Shown: piece by piece, positions 8,800 to 60,348 of the stretch
Position numbering within the stretch: the first letter of the stretch is position 1
How the letters are laid out: each line of letters opens with the position of its first letter
Source: a bacterium
GTDB taxonomy: Bacteria; Omnitrophota; Gorgyraeia; Zapsychrales; Zapsychraceae
Assembly: GCA_030429765.1 (NCBI GenBank)
Contig: JAUIER010000001.1
Coordinates: 129,302 to 193,301, forward strand
Direction of reading: 5' to 3'
Length of the DNA stretch: 64,000 nucleotides
Position numbers and translations under genes: made by a program
Notes under the pieces: model-generated
The model's database searches: none
The model's input: the letters and a program-made list of their open reading frames with translations, nothing else
What the model was told of the DNA's origin: nothing

Positions 8800-9414
8800 A
8801 TGAAAAAATTGATGCTGACACTGTTGTTTGCCGTTTGGATTGCCGGTATACCGGCGAACGCCCAGGCGCTATTGCTGTACAAGGATACATTCCTCAACGC
8901 GACACGCGAGCAAATCGATCCGGTCGTCGGGGTGCAGGGATTTTATGTGAATGATTTTGCGACGGAATTCTTTAACGGCTATACGATTGATTTATCTGAT
9001 CCGCTAACTGTGGGATCGATCTTCACGTCTTCCGCCGGTGATGTGGGCTTCGGGACATTTGCCGCTTATCTGACTGATGGTATCGAGCAAAGCTGGCAGG
9101 CGCGGTTTGTATTGAGCAACGGCATTCAGGCGTTGCAGCGGTCCGAGCCGTTGAGTTTCGGAACGAGTCTCTTTAGTGCCAACAATATCGATCTGGCCGG
9201 CTACCGTATAGATCAACTACAATTTTCGGTCGATTCGGTGGAGGCCCTGGCTGCGGCTTCCGGCTTTAGATGGACAACCAGTATCTCGGTCTTCGGCGAT
9301 TTGGATTCAACGCCCAATGCCATTCCTGAACCGTCAACACTCCTGCTCCTGGGCATGGGGATGACTGGAATGATTATACGTCGACGTCGTGACAGCGATC
9401 GTGCTGCGGTGTAA
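8800..9414 (+). CDS. PEP-CTERM sorting domain protein (204 aa)
   Basis: signal peptide; C-terminus IPEPSTLLLLGMGMTGMIIRRRRD = PEP + TM + Arg cluster. Confidence 0.65.
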   Translation: MKKLMLTLLFAVWIAGIPANAQALLLYKDTFLNATREQIDPVVGVQGFYVNDFATEFFNGYTIDLSDPLTVGSIFTSSAGDVGFGTFAAYLTDGIEQSWQARFVLSNGIQALQRSEPLSFGTSLFSANNIDLAGYRIDQLQFSVDSVEALAAASGFRWTTSISVFGDLDSTPNAIPEPSTLLLLGMGMTGMIIRRRRDSDRAAV

Positions 9415-9450: not shown

Positions 9451-10878
9451 ATGTTATCCAACCGGTATCAATATACCATCCGGCGTCTGATTTATTCATG
9501 CGCCATCGTGTTTCTATCCCTATTTTCAAATGTGATCTATGCGCCGGCGATGGATCGGTCACCCCAGTCCGAGTCACATGACCGTGAGTGGGTCGTGATT
9601 TGGCATGACGAATTTGACGGTGATCGTGTCAATCCTGCCAAATGGCGCATTGAAGACGCCGCGCTGATCAAAAACAACGAACAGCAATACTACACGCCGG
9701 AAGATGTGTATCTGGAAGACGGACATCTGGTACTCCGCAGTCAGCAGCGTCCGATGGGCGGACGTGATTACACATCCGGATTGGTCGAGACCAAGGGGTT
9801 GTTTACATTCACCTACGGGCGGGTGGAGGTGCGCGCGCGATTACCCAAGGGTAAAGGCATTTGGCCGGCGCACTGGATGATGAACGCCGTCGGAACCTGG
9901 CCGCCCGAGATCGACATCATGGAGATGTTGGGGCATCGGCCAACCAAGATTCATATGACCAATCACTTTGGTGTTCATCCACGCAACTCCCGGCACGGCG
10001 GGTATTATGAAGGGCCGGACTATTCAGCAGACTTTCACACCTATGCGATTGAGTGGACACCGGACGAAATAAAATGGTTTATCGACGGTGTTGAACGGTT
10101 TAGCACGCGAAAGTATGTTCATGATGTCCCGTTTTACATTATTCTCAACACGGCGGTCGGCGGCAATTGGCCGGGCTACCCGGATGAGACTACGGAGTTT
10201 CCGCAGTATCACCACATTGACTACGTTCGCGTTTACAAAAAGAATGTGCCGGGGACGGGATTTGTGTATCTGACAGCTGAACATGGACAGGTGAGCCAGC
10301 AGCCGAACGAACACCGTTATGCCTTGGGTACGACGATTCAGTTGGCGGCCAAGCCCGATATCGGATATAAATTTTCGCATTGGACAGGTGATTTGGAAGG
10401 GACCCAGAATCCGTTGGATCTGACCATCGCCGGCAATGTTCGGGCGGCAGCAGTTTTTGCTGAAGATCCGGACGCCCCCGGATTAATTTCGTCCCGGGCG
10501 GCGGTGCTGTCATCCTCGCAGGAAAGCGATCAATTGGGGCCGGCCAACGTGGTGGATGGAAATCTGGGAACGCGTTGGTCCTCAGAGTTTTCAGATCCGC
10601 AATGGATCCAGATTGATTTGGGGGAAGCTCGTTTGATTGAGGCGATGCGGCTGAATTGGGAGAATGCGTTTGCCCGGAGTTATGCGATCGCGGTATCCGA
10701 TGATGCCCTCACATGGAGTACGGTCTATGCCAAGGCCGATTCTAACGGAGGGGTTCATAACATACGGCTGGTCCAATCCGTCTCGGCCCGCTACATCCGG
10801 CTTACGGGAACGGAGCGGGGCACTCAATGGGGCTATTCACTCTGGGAATTTGAGGTATTCGGTCAATCGCAGGAGTAG
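9451..10878 (+). CDS. glycoside hydrolase family 16 (beta-glucanase/laminarinase-like) with C-terminal F5/8 type C (discoidin) domain
   Basis: GH16 catalytic motif EIDIMEM; WHDEFDG; C-terminal RWSSEFSDPQWIQIDLG typical of discoidin domains; N-terminal signal/TM. Confidence 0.75.
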   Translation: MLSNRYQYTIRRLIYSCAIVFLSLFSNVIYAPAMDRSPQSESHDREWVVIWHDEFDGDRVNPAKWRIEDAALIKNNEQQYYTPEDVYLEDGHLVLRSQQRPMGGRDYTSGLVETKGLFTFTYGRVEVRARLPKGKGIWPAHWMMNAVGTWPPEIDIMEMLGHRPTKIHMTNHFGVHPRNSRHGGYYEGPDYSADFHTYAIEWTPDEIKWFIDGVERFSTRKYVHDVPFYIILNTAVGGNWPGYPDETTEFPQYHHIDYVRVYKKNVPGTGFVYLTAEHGQVSQQPNEHRYALGTTIQLAAKPDIGYKFSHWTGDLEGTQNPLDLTIAGNVRAAAVFAEDPDAPGLISSRAAVLSSSQESDQLGPANVVDGNLGTRWSSEFSDPQWIQIDLGEARLIEAMRLNWENAFARSYAIAVSDDALTWSTVYAKADSNGGVHNIRLVQSVSARYIRLTGTERGTQWGYSLWEFEVFGQSQE

Positions 10879-10933
10879 CAAAGACAGTCGATATTTGCTT
10901 TGTCAGGGCCTTGGATTAACGGTACAATTAATT

Positions 10934-11338
10934 ATGCAAAAAGGTTTCACGCTTCTTGAACTGATCATTGTGATCATCATCGTCGGTGTGTTGGCGTCGC
11001 TGGCCTTGCCACGGTTCTTCAGTATGGTGGAATTCGCCCGATCAGCCGAGGCCATGTCATCATTGATGACCGTACGGCAGTCGATACTTCGCTGCGGTCA
11101 ATATAACAATAACTATATGGGCTGCGATACCTTCGCCGATATCGATATTGATGATCCGGGCTCTGAGCCGGGCGCGCATTTTTCCTATGCCTGGACGGTT
11201 ACCAGCGCCGACGCCTTCACCGTAACCGCTACTCGTAATACCATCAACGGCGGCTCCGCGGGAGACACCGTTGTCGTGTCTGTCGCCCCGGCCGGCATCA
11301 GCCGCTCGGGCACTTCCGCCTTTGCCGGAATCAAGTAA
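10934..11338 (+). CDS. type IV pilin-like / pseudopilin protein with prepilin N-terminal methylation motif
   Basis: MQKGFTLLELIIVIIIVGVLASLALP = class III signal (G|FTLLE) ; ORF-track start at 10664 overlaps upstream gene, internal ATG used. Confidence 0.7.
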   Translation: MQKGFTLLELIIVIIIVGVLASLALPRFFSMVEFARSAEAMSSLMTVRQSILRCGQYNNNYMGCDTFADIDIDDPGSEPGAHFSYAWTVTSADAFTVTATRNTINGGSAGDTVVVSVAPAGISRSGTSAFAGIK

Positions 11339-52529: not shown

Positions 52530-53027
52530 ATGCGGACATTTTCATTCACCACGGTTATCATCACCGCTGTCGTTTTATGTGGCGTGAGTTTGGACCAGGC
52601 GTATGCACAGAGTAATTACCGGGGCCGGGCTTCACGAAGTTCATCAAGCCTGCTCAAAGAAAAGTTTTCCAGCAAGCAGCGGATGCTGATCAAGAACAAG
52701 GAGAAGTTGGGACTGTCGGATGATCAAGTGGCGCGACTGGAGCAGCTCAAGGCCAACCTGGAAAAGGGTAATGTCATGAAAGAGGCCCAGATTCAGGTGA
52801 TCGATATTGATCTGCGGTCGATGCTGGCAGCGGACGTCGTGGATCTGAACAAGGTCAATCAACTGATCGACGCCAAGTTTGAATTTGAAAAAGCGCGTGT
52901 CAAGGAAGAGGCTCAGGCCTATGCCGAACTCAAGTCTATTCTGGACCCGCAGCAGCGTCGGGCAATGAAGAATCATCGCGAGATCTACCGCGGGCCGTAC
53001 AATCGCGGTGCTGAGGACGACGAGTAG
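52530..53027 (+). CDS. periplasmic Spy/CpxP-like (LTxxQ-motif) stress protein
   Basis: signal peptide; helical, repeated L..(D/E)Q motifs (LSDDQVARLEQL, LDPQQRRAMK). Confidence 0.5.
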   Translation: MRTFSFTTVIITAVVLCGVSLDQAYAQSNYRGRASRSSSSLLKEKFSSKQRMLIKNKEKLGLSDDQVARLEQLKANLEKGNVMKEAQIQVIDIDLRSMLAADVVDLNKVNQLIDAKFEFEKARVKEEAQAYAELKSILDPQQRRAMKNHREIYRGPYNRGAEDDE

Positions 53028-53037
53028 GGCCGGCTAA

Positions 53038-53601
53038 ATGCGGATCGTCCGGCAGGTATTTATGGAACCCGCGCGCCGCTGGGCGCGGGGACGGATCCCC
53101 TGGATTCGGTTACCATTATTGCTGTGGTTCGCGTGGGTGTTGTTTCAGCATTTGATCAATCCTGACTACCAGAGTATTCTGGACCCATTGAATCTGGGGA
53201 TACATGAATTCGGTCATCTGGTGTTTTCCATCGGCGGCGAATTTTTGGGGTTTCTCGGCGGGACGCTGATGCAGTTGATCGCGCCGGCGTACGGGATCTA
53301 CAACTTTTTCCGTCAGGAAGATTATTTCTCGATCACGCTGTGCTTCGGGTGGCTGTCCACCAACCTGTTTGACATCGCGGTTTATGTCGCGGACGCCCGC
53401 GCGCAGGCCCTGCAGTTGGTCACGCCGTTTGGCGGTCATCCTATTCACGATTGGCATTATATTCTCGGCCGGTTGAACTGGCTCGAATACGATCAGACGT
53501 TGGCGATGATGTTGCGGGGGCTGGCCGTTGTGTCGATGATCATCGGTTTATGGTCCGGCGGATGGGTGTTGTGGCAGATGGTTCGGCAAAAATCGGCCTG
53601 A
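53038..53601 (+). CDS. membrane protein (187 aa)
   Basis: 4-5 hydrophobic helices; HEFGH motif (possible metal site) but no family call. Confidence 0.4.
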   Translation: MRIVRQVFMEPARRWARGRIPWIRLPLLLWFAWVLFQHLINPDYQSILDPLNLGIHEFGHLVFSIGGEFLGFLGGTLMQLIAPAYGIYNFFRQEDYFSITLCFGWLSTNLFDIAVYVADARAQALQLVTPFGGHPIHDWHYILGRLNWLEYDQTLAMMLRGLAVVSMIIGLWSGGWVLWQMVRQKSA

Positions 53602-54530: not shown

Positions 54531-54731
54531 ATGGCAACAGGAACAGTAAAATGGTTTAACGACCAAAAAGGTTTTGGTTTTATCACATCGGAATCAGGTG
54601 GTGACGTTTTCGTTCATCATTCAGAAATCCAAGGTGAAGGTTACAAAACTCTGAAGGAAGGTCAAGCGGTTGAATTTGATATCGTTGACGGACCTAAAGG
54701 GGACCAAGCCAAGAACGTTGTGAAATCATAA
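54531..54731 (+). CDS. cspA: cold-shock protein, CspA family
   Basis: 66 aa; [18 protein letters not shown] (RNP1) and VFVHHS (RNP2). Confidence 0.9.
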
Positions 54732-54750: not shown

Positions 54751-54786
54751 GGCCCGGTTTACATATGTAAGCCGGGCCTTTTTTGT
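54751..54786 (+). terminator. Rho-independent terminator of the csp gene
   Basis: GGCCCGG-loop-CCGGGCC followed by TTTTTTGTG. Confidence 0.6.
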
Positions 54787-54850
54787 GTCTGCTATCCTCA
54801 TGTTGAAGTCTGGCGCCACTTGCACTATAATAGGTAGAAAAGGGGGGAGC

Positions 54851-55279
54851 ATGCGAAACTTTATTATGTTGTGTTTGATGTCCGGGTTGTGCCTGAGCGC
54901 CGGACCCGCCAATGCCGCGCTCATACGGACTACCGAACTCGAAGCATCCGCACCGGAGGCCCGTGATATTATCCGGATCGCCAAATTCAAGAAAGACAAG
55001 AAACGGACATCATCGTTTTCCAAATCCAAAAACCGCAAAAAACTCAAGAAACGAAATCAAGCAAGCCACAAGAAAAAAGCCAAGACCCGGGCGAGGGACA
55101 AGAGAAATACAGCCACAGGTCTGCTTGACGATTCGTCCCATCGCGATCGAAGATTAAAGCGGAAGCCCAGATCGTTCAGCCGAAAGGACAAGCTTGATTT
55201 GATTGACGGACGCCGATATTACCAGTTGGACGGTTATCATCGAAAGAAAAGGTCCCAAGAATCTTTTAAAAAGAACTAA
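54851..55279 (+). CDS. secreted poly-basic (Lys/Arg-rich) protein 1
   Basis: SD AAAGGGGGGAG; signal peptide MRNFIMLCLMSGLCLSAGPANA; remainder about 40% K/R. Confidence 0.45.
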   Translation: MRNFIMLCLMSGLCLSAGPANAALIRTTELEASAPEARDIIRIAKFKKDKKRTSSFSKSKNRKKLKKRNQASHKKKAKTRARDKRNTATGLLDDSSHRDRRLKRKPRSFSRKDKLDLIDGRRYYQLDGYHRKKRSQESFKKN

Positions 55280-55344
55280 TTCGGGGCTATTTTCCCGAGA
55301 GATGTTTAGCTGCCATGAAGAACCAGTGTAGGGAGGGAATACGA

Positions 55345-55812
55345 ATGTCCATGAATCGGATCGGGCATATTCCGATAACAATCGGGGTATGTCTATTACT
55401 AACGCTGCTGGCTGACACTGTCGGTGCGGCGATGATTAAGTTTACCTCTGGAAAGACAGAGAATTGTAAGATAGTCAAACGGGGTCAAGACCGCTTGTTA
55501 CTGCTCACACCGCAGGGACATAAAATCATACCTTATGATGATATACGCAGTATTCAAAAAGGCTTGGACGAGCAAAGTAGCGTCATTGGTCCGATAATAG
55601 CCGATTTCAAAAGATACAAGCGGGCGCAAAGAAAGGCAGGTACATCGCCCGAAGCCATACGTCGACAAAAGAAAAAACAATTGGCCGAAAACAAGCGACG
55701 GCGACGAGGTCGGTTTACCGGAAGATACGGAGAGGATGCCAGAAAACATATGAGGTATCAAAGACAGAATCGAAAATATGAGGATGCCAAGAAGAATGGA
55801 AAGTTGTACTAG
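55345..55812 (+). CDS. secreted poly-basic protein 2 (paralog)
   Basis: SD GGAGGGAA; signal peptide; globular ~45-aa segment (KFTSGKTENCKIVKRGQDRLLLLTPQGHKIIPYDDIRSIQKGL) then K/R-rich tail. Confidence 0.45.
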   Translation: MSMNRIGHIPITIGVCLLLTLLADTVGAAMIKFTSGKTENCKIVKRGQDRLLLLTPQGHKIIPYDDIRSIQKGLDEQSSVIGPIIADFKRYKRAQRKAGTSPEAIRRQKKKQLAENKRRRRGRFTGRYGEDARKHMRYQRQNRKYEDAKKNGKLY

Positions 55813-56281
55813 TAAACAGGTGTCTGCAATTTCGGTGCTCAAGTTGACGGTTGCTTTTATGGTTGTCGTGTGTATGGTTGTATCGAGAGCCGAAGCCGTA
55901 ACGGTAAGATTAACGTCCGGCAAGGTCGTTCGAGGACCGGTTGTGGGTATCGACACCGGTTTGGGAAATTTCACACTTCGGACCGATCAAGGACTTTTCC
56001 ACATTAAGTATGAACATGTCGGTTCGATTAGCAAAGGCCTTGGCGAAAATGATAAGATCACCAACAGACTTATCAAAAGCGTTGAAGAACGGCAGAGGTC
56101 CATAAAGAACTTCAGACGGAATCCGCGGAAGGAGTCCCGACGCCGGGCCCGGAAGATCGATAATGCAATTCGAGAGTCCCAACGAAGATCTGGTGTCGGT
56201 CTAAGAAATTCAAGGAATCAAAACTCACCTATCTCCAAGCAGCTGCAGAAACGGCTTAAGGAGAGGGATCGGCTTCGATAG
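55796..56281 (+). CDS. secreted poly-basic protein 3 (paralog)
   Basis: signal peptide; segment VRLTSGKVVRGPVVGIDTGLGNFTLRTDQGLFHIKYEHVGSISKGL homologous to protein 2; R-rich tail. Confidence 0.45.
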   Translation: MESCTSKQVSAISVLKLTVAFMVVVCMVVSRAEAVTVRLTSGKVVRGPVVGIDTGLGNFTLRTDQGLFHIKYEHVGSISKGLGENDKITNRLIKSVEERQRSIKNFRRNPRKESRRRARKIDNAIRESQRRSGVGLRNSRNQNSPISKQLQKRLKERDRLR

Positions 56282-56476
56282 GCCGATGTTGCTACGTATC
56301 TGACAATTTCACGAGTTGGCAACAAGACGCCAAGGCTTTTTTCTGCTCTCATCAATATCCCAAAACCGCAAGCGCTACAACATGAGCGGCTATCACCAAA
56401 AGAAACGGTCGGGGGATTCGTATATTAAAGATTAAGATACAGTGGATTAGTTACAGTCAATAGGAGTTGTAATCAC

Positions 56477-56872
56477 GTGAATCAGGCGCTGAAGTGTATA
56501 TTAGCACTTATTCCACTTATTATTCTTTCATTTATGTTGCCCATGGTAACAAATATCCCTGGCGACGATACGGTTATTCATAATCACAATTATTTCTTGA
56601 GCGCTATAAATTTGATATTTTATTCGGGTGTATTTAGCTATCCGGCATACCTATACGTTCTATTGCTCGATACGGACAAACCATTGAAAAAATCACTTAT
56701 TAGAGATTTCTGGGTACGGTTAAGTTTTTTGATGGCAGGGTTGGATTGCATTCTTGGAATCTATTTTAGTGCATATATGATGGTTATATTTGCAATGTTC
56801 GGACTAATAGCCTTAATCGTAATTATTCGTTTACTATTCAAGTACGAAAAATTGTCGACTCAAGGAGTTTAA
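56477..56872 (+). CDS. AT-rich membrane protein (131 aa, GTG start)
   Basis: 4 TM; local GC clearly lower than flanks. Confidence 0.35.
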   Translation: MNQALKCILALIPLIILSFMLPMVTNIPGDDTVIHNHNYFLSAINLIFYSGVFSYPAYLYVLLLDTDKPLKKSLIRDFWVRLSFLMAGLDCILGIYFSAYMMVIFAMFGLIALIVIIRLLFKYEKLSTQGV

Positions 56873-56935
56873 TCTTTACGATGTGTAGTGCAGAGGAGAT
56901 TACTTTTTGATAGATTTTAAGAGGGTATAACCCGT

Positions 56936-57313
56936 ATGTCGAACATGAGCAGGTCTGAATTAAAAAACAAAATAAACAGACAACAAAAAATTTTAAAAGT
57001 CGTTATTTTGGTTTTCATCATGATAACTTTTTTGGCGGGAGTATTTATTTACAATAGTCTCAACGAGGTGCAGAGATATTTTGAAACGAGTCAGGTGAGT
57101 TTTATTCAGAATATAGAGGCAAAGACAGACACTGAGATTTTGTTAAAAAATCGAGGTTTAATAATGGCCAACCATATCGTCCAAACATCGAAATCTCTTG
57201 GGATAATTTTGTCTGGATTGGTTGTTTTTGTGGGAATGCACAGCGCATTGATGTTATATCTGCTGCGAAAGAATAACAGTAAATTATTGGAGTTACTTGA
57301 ATCAAAGGAATAA
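56936..57313 (+). CDS. AT-rich membrane protein (125 aa)
   Basis: 2 TM; low GC. Confidence 0.35.
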   Translation: MSNMSRSELKNKINRQQKILKVVILVFIMITFLAGVFIYNSLNEVQRYFETSQVSFIQNIEAKTDTEILLKNRGLIMANHIVQTSKSLGIILSGLVVFVGMHSALMLYLLRKNNSKLLELLESKE

Positions 57314-57569
57314 TTCACTATAAAATCCAACAGATCGCCAAAGACAGATGTCCTCAGTAATGAAGTATCACTCCGTTTATTTTACACAATCGTCACATAA
57401 TCTTCACTTAAAAGCGACATGGAATGGATAGTCTACTCACAGACAGTCAGGTCAGATGGGGGGCACGGTCCATTCATTTTTCTCCTCCAATGAAAAATGG
57501 CCCCCCATTTATTACAATCGGCATGCCTTTACACCCCGGGATTCCAGTAATAGAATAGTTGAGATCATT

Positions 57570-58270: not shown

Positions 58271-60064
58271 TTGCGTATCAGCATTCAATACAAAATCACC
58301 TTCATCTTCGCTGTCGTCGTCGCCGCCATTCTCGCCAGCGTTTTTATTTATCTGCATAACAATATAAAGGATCAGGCCTTTCAGAGCATCAAGCGTGAGC
58401 TCAACAAAGAGACGCGGCTGTCGATGCGTTATCTTCAGACGAACATGCCGGCACGTTCGGACATCCGTTCGATTGACGCGATTGCCGATACAATCGGCGA
58501 GTCGTTGGGGGTGCGGGTGACGGTCATCGCCCTGGACGGCAAGGTGTTGGGCGATTCAGAGTTGTCGGTCCAACAGGTCCGCACCATCGACAATCATCTC
58601 TACCGTCCGGAGATTCAGCGCGCGCTGCAGTCCGGAATGGGTGAGGTCCGGCGTTTTAGCCGGACCGTTAATCAGGAACTGCTCTATCACGCCCGGATAT
58701 TTACCGGGTCGGACAATCAGCCCCAGGGATTTATCCGTCTGGCGGTTCCGCTGTCCGATATTCGGAGCTTTACCGACGGTCTCAAGCGGCTGATCCTGTT
58801 TTCATTGGGATTCGCGTTTGTGTTGGCGCTGGTGTTCGGATGGCTGGCGACCAATCTGATTTCGCGGCCGATTAAATCGGTGTCGTCGGTGGCCAAGGGG
58901 ATTTCCAGAGGCGATTTTTCGGAACGCGCGGGTGTTTATTCCAATGATGAGCTGGGTGACCTGTCCACGTCGATCAATCACATGTCCAAGCAGATCAAGG
59001 AGCGTATTGATGAGGTGACCACCAGCCGGCTTCGGCTTGAGGCGGTGCTGCTGAGTATGTTTGACGGGGTGATCGTTGTGGGCGCGGACGGGAAGATTGT
59101 ATTGATGAACCAAACCCTGCGGGAATTGCTTCAGGTGACCGAGGAGGTGGTCGGGAAAAAGCCGATCGAGGTGATCCGGAATGTTGAGGTGCAGGAGATC
59201 ATCAGTCAGGTGATGAAAAAACAAAAGTCGGTGTCCTCGCGGGAAATCTCGGTGCTGTTTCCCAAGAAACGTGAGCTGATCATTCACGCCGCGCCGGTGG
59301 TCATGAAGGACACGATCGACGGGGTAGTGATGGTGTTTCACGATATCTCCGATCTCAAACGCCTGGAGGCCGTCCGTAAGGACTTTGTCGCCAATGTCTC
59401 ACACGAATTGCGCACGCCGATTACCAATATCAAAGGTTATGCCGAGACCCTGCTTGAGGGCGCTTTGACCGACAAGGCCAACGCGGAAGACTTCACGCGG
59501 ATTATTTATAACGAGTCCGAACGCCTGGCCAAATTGGTGGAGGACGTCCTGGATCTGTCCAAGATTGAATCCGGGAAGATCAAATATGATTTTCAACCGC
59601 AGGACATCGGCTTGCTGGTTGACCGCGTGGAAAAAGGTCTACGTAAGCAGATGCAAAAAAAACGCATCACCTTCCGCCGGGACATTCCCGCTGATTTTCC
59701 GCCTGTCCAATGTGACGGGCCAAGCATCGCCCAGGTGCTCCTGAACCTGATGGAGAATGCCCTCAAATACAATAACGAAGGCGGATACATTGCCGTGTCC
59801 GCCCGGGTGGACGCCGACAAGGCCGTGATCGCCGTGTCCGATAACGGCCTCGGTATTCCCGAGGAAGATATCCCCCGGATTTTTGAGCGGTTTTTCCGGG
59901 TGGATAAGGCCCATTCCCGCGAGATCGGGGGAACCGGTCTGGGGCTGTCCATCGTCAAACACCTGATCCAGTCCCATCAGGGTGAAGTTCAGGTGACGAG
60001 CCAGCTAGGGTTGGGCTCTACCTTCAGTTTCAGCCTGCCGATTGCCTCCAAAAATGTCACATAA
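58271..60064 (+). CDS. phoR: phosphate-regulon sensor histidine kinase (PhoR-like)
   Basis: 2 TM + periplasmic domain, HAMP, PAS, H box SHELRTPITNIKGYAETL, N/G boxes; adjacent to phoB and pstSCA. Confidence 0.75.
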   Translation: MRISIQYKITFIFAVVVAAILASVFIYLHNNIKDQAFQSIKRELNKETRLSMRYLQTNMPARSDIRSIDAIADTIGESLGVRVTVIALDGKVLGDSELSVQQVRTIDNHLYRPEIQRALQSGMGEVRRFSRTVNQELLYHARIFTGSDNQPQGFIRLAVPLSDIRSFTDGLKRLILFSLGFAFVLALVFGWLATNLISRPIKSVSSVAKGISRGDFSERAGVYSNDELGDLSTSINHMSKQIKERIDEVTTSRLRLEAVLLSMFDGVIVVGADGKIVLMNQTLRELLQVTEEVVGKKPIEVIRNVEVQEIISQVMKKQKSVSSREISVLFPKKRELIIHAAPVVMKDTIDGVVMVFHDISDLKRLEAVRKDFVANVSHELRTPITNIKGYAETLLEGALTDKANAEDFTRIIYNESERLAKLVEDVLDLSKIESGKIKYDFQPQDIGLLVDRVEKGLRKQMQKKRITFRRDIPADFPPVQCDGPSIAQVLLNLMENALKYNNEGGYIAVSARVDADKAVIAVSDNGLGIPEEDIPRIFERFFRVDKAHSREIGGTGLGLSIVKHLIQSHQGEVQVTSQLGLGSTFSFSLPIASKNVT

Positions 60065-60153
60065 AGTTCACATTCATGCCAAATAGAGTTCACCCGCGAT
60101 TTATACAATAAAGAAAAAAATGCGATAAATATTGTTAATGAGGAGATGAACAA

Positions 60154-60348
60154 GTGAACCGATTTGAACAGGCGAACAGTCCACATATCGACCAGGTCGC
60201 GAGTAACCTTAGAACACAGATCATCAGTCTGCACAATGTGCTGGAAACCATCGAACGCACTCACCGATACGAGGATAGTTTTATCACGGAATCTCTCAGG
60301 GATTCGGAGCTTGAGCTGCGACGTTTAAGAAAATTTATAAACAGCTAG
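60154..60348 (+). CDS. small hypothetical protein (64 aa, GTG start)
   Basis: AGGAG 8 nt upstream of GTG; helical, charged. Confidence 0.3.
   Translation: MNRFEQANSPHIDQVASNLRTQIISLHNVLETIERTHRYEDSFITESLRDSELELRRLRKFINS

Follow-up and report, generated by a model that had tools for sequence, protein, structure and literature searches.

Diderm bacteria export several kinds of small, basic periplasmic proteins through Sec, among them Skp/OmpH (the "histone-like protein HlpA") and the Spy/CpxP-type LTXXQ proteins. In microbial aggregates, multivalent electrostatic binding to extracellular DNA is the mode of action of Sbp from Staphylococcus epidermidis, a secreted 16-kDa basic protein that is needed for biofilm formation, binds double-stranded DNA, and forms condensates (PMC4370877; PMC12828985). 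Here, we analyzed a 64,000-nucleotide (nt) stretch of DNA from a bacterium of the Omnitrophota (positions 129,302 to 193,301 of contig JAUIER010000001.1, assembly GCA_030429765.1; hereafter, the window), in which three consecutive genes, termed g1, g2, and g3 herein (54851-56281), encode small proteins with hydrophobic leaders and extremely basic tails. We tentatively read the trio as a lineage-restricted operon of Sec-exported proteins that are cleaved by signal peptidase I (SPase I) and serve as envelope or matrix polycations binding polyanions, a reading that we regard as quite possible but still short of probable.

Among described proteins, Sbp offers the best functional analogy to the trio. 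Both are small (~16 kDa) with a high positive charge density and partly disordered regions, and both are secreted, by prediction in the case of the trio. Sbp is no homologue, as the g2/g3 profile search described below matched none (the presence of Sbp in that library was not checked). It also comes from a monoderm, has a predicted continuous antiparallel sheet, and bears its charge evenly, whereas the trio belongs to a diderm, concentrates its charge in C-terminal tails, and is laid out as a three-gene operon. Genes for a TonB-dependent receptor, a porin, and a lipid A acyltransferase mark the host as a diderm. Compared with the periplasmic proteins of other diderms, g1-g3 showed no OmpH or LTXXQ sequence match and have a far higher charge density, and the modeled g2/g3 fold, a beta-barrel plus tail, is neither the coiled-coil "jellyfish" of Skp nor the helical cradle of Spy/CpxP.

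Gene layout, composition, and family relationships

The three genes are co-oriented on the + strand, as a preliminary description of this DNA had stated, and all trio features given here lie on that strand. g1 (54851-55279) encodes a 142-aa precursor, with its ATG 5 nt after the G-rich Shine-Dalgarno (SD) sequence AAGGGGGGAG. The precursor comprises a predicted signal peptide (residues 1-22, 54851-54916; ending ...GPANA↓A, where the arrow marks the predicted cleavage site), a neutral or acidic spacer (residues 23-44), a polybasic core (residues 45-88, 54983-55114), and a conserved C-terminal motif, RDRxLKRKPRSFxRKDKxDLIxGRRxYxxxGYHxxKRS (residues 98-135, 55142-55255). The basic run quoted in the preliminary description, KKDKKRTSSFSKSKNRKKLKKRNQASHKKKAKTRARDKRN, corresponds to residues 47-86 of g1. 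g2 (55345-55812; SD sequence GGGAGGG 7 nt upstream) encodes a 155-aa precursor with a predicted signal peptide (residues 1-28, 55345-55428; ending ...DTVGA↓A), a five-stranded small beta-barrel in the model (residues 29-77, 55429-55575), and a basic helical tail (residues 78-155, 55576-55809). Its paralogue g3 (55796-56281; 161-aa precursor) has the same plan, with a predicted signal peptide (residues 1-34, 55796-55897; ending ...SRAEA↓V), a beta-barrel (residues 35-85, 55898-56050), and an Arg-rich tail (residues 86-161, 56051-56278). The public gene call for g3 (P0001) is the 161-aa form; an alternative in-frame ATG at 55778 would give 167 aa. The slight overlap described for g2 and g3 amounts to 17 nt, or 35 nt with the alternative g3 start.

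The putative transcription unit has a well-defined 5' end. A cold-shock gene (csp, 54531-54731) lies directly upstream, and its predicted intrinsic terminator (54751-54778, + strand; 12-bp stem with 8 GC pairs, then a T-run) would form the 5' boundary. Transcription would start from a candidate sigma-70-like promoter, TTGAAG-17-TATAAT (54803-54831; 10/12 consensus match), ~20 nt ahead of the g1 start codon. In public data, g1 is called as a 159-aa ORF (P0003) from an ATG at 54800, within this promoter-like sequence. Since the SD sequence AAGGGGGGA and the ATG at 54851 are both kept in the g1 orthologue on a second contig, L022 (see below), ATG 54851 appears to be the better start, and the 142-aa product is more likely than the 159-aa call. 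L022 also has a -10-like hexamer, TAGAAT, at a similar distance from the same SD and ATG. Downstream of g3, a weak terminator-like hairpin and T-run (56316-56341; 5-bp stem, then GGCTTTTTTC) may mark the 3' end of the operon. Folding of 56279-56345 was no better than that of shuffled sequences (z = -0.67), so that read-through from g3 into the AT-rich open reading frames (ORFs) that follow is possible.

The extreme basicity noted earlier was borne out. Lys and Arg make up 26-36% of the predicted mature proteins (33-43 per ~120 residues), which have net charges of +29, +23, and +21 for g1, g2, and g3, respectively, and isoelectric points of 10.7-11.8. Among six-frame ORFs of 100 codons or more, the trio contains the three most positive 60-residue stretches of the window. 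The tails contain 13-19% ILMFVW, and their most amphipathic 18-mers average -0.65 to -1.06 in hydrophobicity, which is too hydrophilic for membrane lysis.

Our comparisons agreed with the claim that a short conserved globular segment precedes the tail in the second and third genes. g2 and g3 are paralogues (BLASTP E=7e-8, 25% identity) that have in common the leader, a segment of ~47 residues (TSGK...G...L.T.QG..I.Y....SI.KG), and the basic tail. g1 lacks the segment, and its profile aligns with those of g2/g3 at the signal peptides only; because nothing but the leader is common to them, g1 was placed in a separate family, whose orthologue alignment shows a conserved KFKKD box and a core rich in K, R, and S besides the C-terminal motif. 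The trio thus comprises two orphan families sharing a "leader plus polybasic tail" design.

No match above threshold was obtained in Pfam, NCBIfam, PHROGs, or PADLOC with the three proteins, their orthologues, or the barrels taken alone. A word-index protein search returned only self matches for g1, g2, and g3, a weak negative given that it missed the orthologues P0004 and P0006, which are in that collection and share exact words of 8-9 residues with g2 and g1, respectively. The PDB sequence search found nothing for g1. Its only lead, a likeness to the ribosomal protein bS18, had an E value of ~0.1-0.2 and was dismissed as chance, leaving the notion of cytoplasmic, ribosomal-protein-like products unsupported. 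Rfam had no match anywhere in the window.

Orthologues and selection

The g2/g3 family alone was searched exhaustively, with an HMMER profile of the g2+g3 alignment (A1) against 1.84 billion cluster representatives. Four proteins were returned: two of the window, P0004, and one spurious match. P0004 (160 aa, E=2e-21) is a true homologue, while P0005, a 793-aa Cys/Gly-rich repeat protein with an E value of 1e-4 spread over 10 stretches, was a false positive. The P0004 gene sits on L022, a 1,310-bp contig from another sequencing run, SRR23272297, that carries a g1 orthologue followed by a g2 orthologue, in the order and on the strand seen in the window. The g1 orthologue (P0006; L022 217-642) has 141 aa and is 47% identical to g1; P0004 is 49% identical to g2 (E=1e-35).

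Synonymous sites are saturated between the window and L022 (pS 0.70-0.77), whereas overall non-synonymous divergence is constrained (pN 0.38-0.41; for g1, pN 0.38 versus pS 0.77), which argues that the trio is coding rather than a set of chance ORFs. For the g2 barrel and for the C-terminal motif of g1, pN is 0.25; the tails range from 0.35 to 0.48, the upper value being that of g2. Charge is retained all the same: g1 has a net charge of +29 versus +32 in its orthologue, and three tails carry +18, +19, and +18 despite a turnover of ~50% of residues. By codon usage, the annotated frame was the best of six for each of g1-g3, by a small margin and with scores near zero, a margin kept small by the skewed composition of the trio. 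Judged from these patterns, g1-g3 are protein-coding genes under purifying selection on sequence motifs and charge.

On L022, an SD sequence (GGTGGGGGTGA) and an ATG after the g2 orthologue open an AT-rich ORF (1253-1310) that starts MIQLLIRSFIIAVLSTIIL and is ended by the contig. It could encode a g3-like leader or a membrane protein like the 131-aa one downstream of the trio (ORF131, below); homology of the 19-residue fragment to ORF131 or to g3 was not established.

All the protein clusters are singletons. Contigs 100% identical to the window were found in two sequencing runs, one of them a metagenome from biofloc (microbial aggregate) aquaculture belonging to the project of run SRR24442552. 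No match was obtained in two metagenome scans (with the g1+g2 and g2 alignments), in a tblastn search of g3 against 50,697 phage records (g1 and g2 were not queried there), or in a tblastn search of g2 against plasmids. A genome-contig search with PhoR for syntenic loci gave a best match of 31% identity and no usable relatives.

Structure models

The AlphaFold2 model of g2 (mean pLDDT 73.6, with a low-confidence leader helix) has five strands (residues 29-33, 38-46, 50-55, 58-63, and 67-71; block pLDDT 79-88) and three tail helices (81-98, 102-123, and 128-150; block pLDDT mostly 78-83, with a dip to 59). In a Foldseek search with this model, the top 50 PDB matches were all Hfq (E ~1e-3), and the viral library gave only generic small-barrel matches. 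g2 would share with Hfq/Sm (LSm) proteins the fold of a five-stranded bent barrel. However, identity to the matched Hfq/Sm chains was 8-21%, no Hfq/LSM match was found in Pfam/NCBIfam even at E values up to 1-5, and the Sm1/Sm2 motifs are absent. The "N-terminal helix" that Foldseek aligned with that of Hfq is the hydrophobic signal peptide of g2, not an amphipathic Sm helix, and Hfq/Sm proteins act in the cytoplasm, whereas g2/g3 are predicted to be extracytoplasmic.

The isolated g3 barrel, and only that of g3, had a sub-threshold match to the SH3-like Pfam domain BPL_C (16.5-18.9 bits versus a cut-off of 21). The BirA C-terminal domain (BPL_C) and the barrel of the lipoprotein PDB 3bdu are likewise SH3-like small barrels; g2/g3 have neither a lipobox Cys nor an enzyme domain, and their polybasic tail has no counterpart in BPL_C or 3bdu. 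The g2/g3 barrel is, as modeled, a generic small beta-barrel of the Sm/SH3-like kind, which says nothing for a particular ligand. The check on the conserved segment proposed in the preliminary description yielded a model and the homologue P0004 but no match in curated libraries. For g1, the AlphaFold2 single-sequence model consists of long helices without a globular domain; helices with so high a charge probably become ordered only on binding.

Predicted export and proposed function

Signal peptides were called by inspection of five sequences (g1, g2, g3, P0004, and P0006) and comparison with exported proteins of the host. All five show the n-h-c layout: a basic n-region comes first, then the hydrophobic core, then a c-region that is polar or helix-breaking. 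The cores of the trio span 13-18 residues, compared with the 7-15 (up to 18) of a tripartite signal peptide. In g3 and P0004, just 13-14 residues separate the flanking charges, fewer than usual for a membrane span. Small residues occupy positions -1 and -3 throughout (ANA↓A, VGA↓A, and AEA↓V in the window; AMA↓M and ADA↓V in the orthologues), as in the AxA rule, which calls for small uncharged residues at these positions (PMC9360617). Leaders of host proteins look alike, including those of the PEP-CTERM protein (...IPANA↓Q), PstS (...TADA↓A), and the porin (...AVHA↓G); the leader of a DUF4331 protein was also compared. Over the first 20 mature residues predicted, the net charge is -1 in g1 and -2 in its orthologue, and both have a net-negative spacer of 22 residues ahead of the polybasic core.

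Two other export routes were rejected. A lipoprotein reading failed on the lipobox, as none of the five sequences has [LVI][ASTVI][GAS]C with Cys at +1; the leader Cys residues (LC/LC in g1, GVC in g2) lack an allowed -1 residue and are not kept in the orthologues. The twin-arginine (Tat) motif S/T-R-R-x-F-L-K is absent, too; the sequence "PRRMES," present only with the long g3 start, departs from the motif.

From the leaders, we infer that the trio is exported and cleaved, and Sec export appears more likely than a membrane-anchor topology. The preliminary description had called the proteins secreted: Sec-type n-h-c leaders are indeed found on all three, yet secretion itself remains a prediction, and the charge of the g2-type proteins leaves an anchor topology in play. 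In the proposed mechanism, the pre-proteins would be cleaved at ANA↓A, VGA↓A, and AEA↓V, and the mature products (~120-127 aa, +21 to +29) would act as multivalent polycations in the periplasm, at the cell surface, or in the matrix outside the cell. There they could bind, cross-link, or condense extracellular DNA, acidic exopolysaccharide, lipopolysaccharide (LPS), or polyphosphate; judging by charge, polyanion binding is reasonable to infer. The g2/g3 barrel could add oligomerization or a specific contact; g1, apart from its one conserved C-terminal motif, is little more than a tail. Finding the organism in floc fits this picture and proves nothing. We further considered, as a quite unlikely extension, that the exported Sm/Hfq-like barrel plus tail oligomerizes outside the cytoplasm and, with g1, packs extracellular nucleic acid or acidic exopolysaccharide into a chromatin-like scaffold of the floc matrix.

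New here are the architecture and, for a putative Sec substrate, the extreme charge; the practical value is modest at present. If exported, the trio would rank with the most positively charged of the known Sec substrates and offer a natural test case for how much charge the translocon can move against the membrane potential, and the idea of a "small basic matrix protein," so far staphylococcal, would extend to a diderm floc-dweller with a different fold. The chromatin-like scaffold, if true, would add an undescribed protein architecture and, in nature, a Sec substrate whose positive charge far exceeds what is usually tolerated.

Several points weigh against export of matrix polycations. The first 20 predicted mature residues carry +2 in g3 and, unusually for a Sec substrate, +4 in g2 and +6 in P0004. 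Under the positive-inside rule (PMC9360617), charge after the core would favor a cytoplasmic location for the C-terminal part of the g2-type proteins. Moving 33-43 Lys/Arg per chain across an energized membrane is costly. The best structural matches of the barrel are cytoplasmic RNA-binding Sm/Hfq proteins, and the g2 model rests on an alignment of two sequences. No genes for polyanion synthesis, nucleases, or dedicated secretion were seen among the annotated neighbors of the trio, and with a family known from two uncultured organisms only, co-occurrence statistics are impossible.

The AT-rich islet and the phosphate regulon

The trio was originally placed just upstream of a phosphate regulon and an AT-rich islet, and this position was confirmed: the islet (56400-57400) fills the 1.1 kb between g3 and phoB and has a G+C content of 0.33-0.35, compared with ~0.52 in its flanks, and phoB/phoR/porin/pstSCA follow, 1.3 kb from the trio. 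Its two ORFs are orphans without a Pfam, PHROG, or PADLOC match, ORF131 (56477-56872; 131 aa, ~4 transmembrane [TM] segments) and ORF125 (56936-57313; 125 aa, 2 TM segments). By composition, the islet looks horizontally acquired. It was probably acquired separately from the trio, because the G+C content of the trio, although below that of its ~0.52 flanks, is 0.45-0.49. An imperfect 15-nt direct repeat (54733-54747/57292-57306; GTAATTTGAATCAAA/GTTACTTGAATCAAA, 13/15 identical) brackets trio and islet and could be a relic of insertion or chance.

Two Pho-box arrays, each of direct 7-bp repeats with 11-bp phasing, were identified. One (57380-57420; TTTACAC-n4-GTCACAT-n4-TTCACTT-n4-GCGACAT) is upstream of the phoB-like regulator, and the other (60055-60095; TGTCACA-n4-GTTCACA-n4-TGCCAAA-n4-GTTCACC) overlaps the phoR stop and precedes a 64-aa orphan ORF (60154-60348), a Porin_5 gene, and pstSCA. 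Both resemble the E. coli Pho-box consensus. A window-wide scan for Pho-box dimers found three on the + strand, at these arrays, and two isolated ones on the minus strand (30941 and 59981); it detected none before g1 (54780-54850), and none was seen upstream of the orthologous locus on L022 on inspection. The suggested Pho regulation of the trio was thus not upheld, with arrays at the regulon only, a promoter-like site belonging to the trio itself, and the islet in between; the connection appears positional only and is otherwise unsupported.

Alternative explanations

By weight, the rivals rank from membrane anchors through antimicrobials and phosphate scavenging to non-functional ORFs. The most serious of them, unlikely as we consider it, is that the leaders are uncleaved N-out/C-in anchors, with barrel and tails in the cytoplasm at the inner membrane, binding RNA, DNA, ribosomes, or anionic phospholipid head-groups. 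The positive charge that follows the core in g2, P0004, and g3 compares with ~+1 before it, and the tails add at least +18; the closest folds of the barrel are those of RNA-binding proteins; the gene directly upstream encodes a cold-shock RNA chaperone; and the g1 orthologue has sub-threshold Pfam matches (V_ATPase_I, BatA, and Peptidase_S49_N) to regions of the "TM helix plus basic cytoplasmic loop" type. Other features speak against anchoring. The net-negative residues after the core of g1 and its orthologue favor a C-out orientation, and the n-regions are basic, unlike the typically acidic N-out tails; csp ends in a strong terminator, and the trio has a predicted promoter to itself; and no Hfq/LSM sequence signature accompanies the fold. 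The short cores of g3 and P0004 and the polar c-regions with small -1/-3 residues, as in genuine signal peptides of the host, also speak for cleavage. Were the proteins anchored with their tails in the cytoplasm, they would amount to Sm-like proteins tethered to the membrane, likewise an unusual arrangement.

Export as secreted cationic antimicrobials, in the manner of bacteriocins and with the membrane proteins of the islet (56477-56872 and 56936-57313) as immunity proteins, is improbable. Sec-type leaders, strong positive charge, and two small orphan membrane proteins downstream would suit it, as would a G+C content below that of the flanks, which suggests acquired DNA, and the hydrophobic segment that opens the ORF after the g2 orthologue on L022. 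In a class II bacteriocin locus, a short peptide, amphipathic or hydrophobic, has a double-glycine or Sec leader, with an immunity gene next to it and usually an ABC exporter. In contrast, the products of the trio are very hydrophilic and exceed 120 aa, without the hydrophobic amphipathic helix of pore-forming cationic peptides, and no double-glycine leader, adjacent exporter or dedicated transporter, modification enzyme, or PADLOC or PHROG match was found; the differing G+C content of the islet points to a separate acquisition. A role in the phosphate-starvation response, in which the trio captures extracellular DNA or polyphosphate for PhoBR/Pst, is very unlikely. Polycations bind polyphosphate and DNA in general, and the regulon is close by, but the phased Pho boxes serve phoB and porin-pst rather than g1 or its orthologue, the predicted promoter of the trio looks constitutive, unrelated islet ORFs intervene, and the operon has no nuclease or phosphatase. 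Least of all do we favor, as extremely unlikely, non-functional sequence, either chance ORFs in purine-rich DNA or decaying cargo of a mobile element. Near-zero codon-usage scores, a G+C content below the flanks, the lack of homologues in curated libraries, and the direct repeat would be expected of it; the constrained orthologues with their kept SD and start sites, the protein-level paralogy of g2 and g3, and the best-of-six frame in all three genes would not. Phage spanins (Rz/Rz1-like), in which an i-spanin with an N-terminal TM segment and a charged helical domain in the periplasm pairs with an embedded or overlapping lipoprotein o-spanin, were considered as such cargo and rejected: there was no PHROG match, no phage tblastn match for g3, and nearby neither the lipoprotein ORF that spanins require as a partner nor lysis genes such as a holin or endolysin.

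Other genes in the window

Between 45060 and the trio, genes with Pfam annotation encode an AraC-type response regulator, a receiver-domain protein, a pyrophosphatase, a PLD-like protein, a UvrD-like helicase, a cupin, and small membrane or periplasmic proteins, up to the cold-shock gene. At 53038-53601 lies a gene for a 187-aa membrane protein with the motif HEFGH (HExxH zinc-protease-like) and no Pfam match. The adjoining gene (52530-53027), 2 kb upstream of the trio, encodes a 165-aa secreted protein with a weak LTXXQ (Spy/CpxP-like) match.

At the far end of the window, we identified a protein with a PEP-CTERM sorting signal (8800-9414) and a type IV minor pilin bearing a ComP_DUS domain, which resembles a receptor for DNA-uptake sequences (10664-11338). 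PEP-CTERM proteins are typical of diderms that form exopolysaccharide and flocs, and the two together would fit an aggregate lifestyle with DNA handling at the cell surface.

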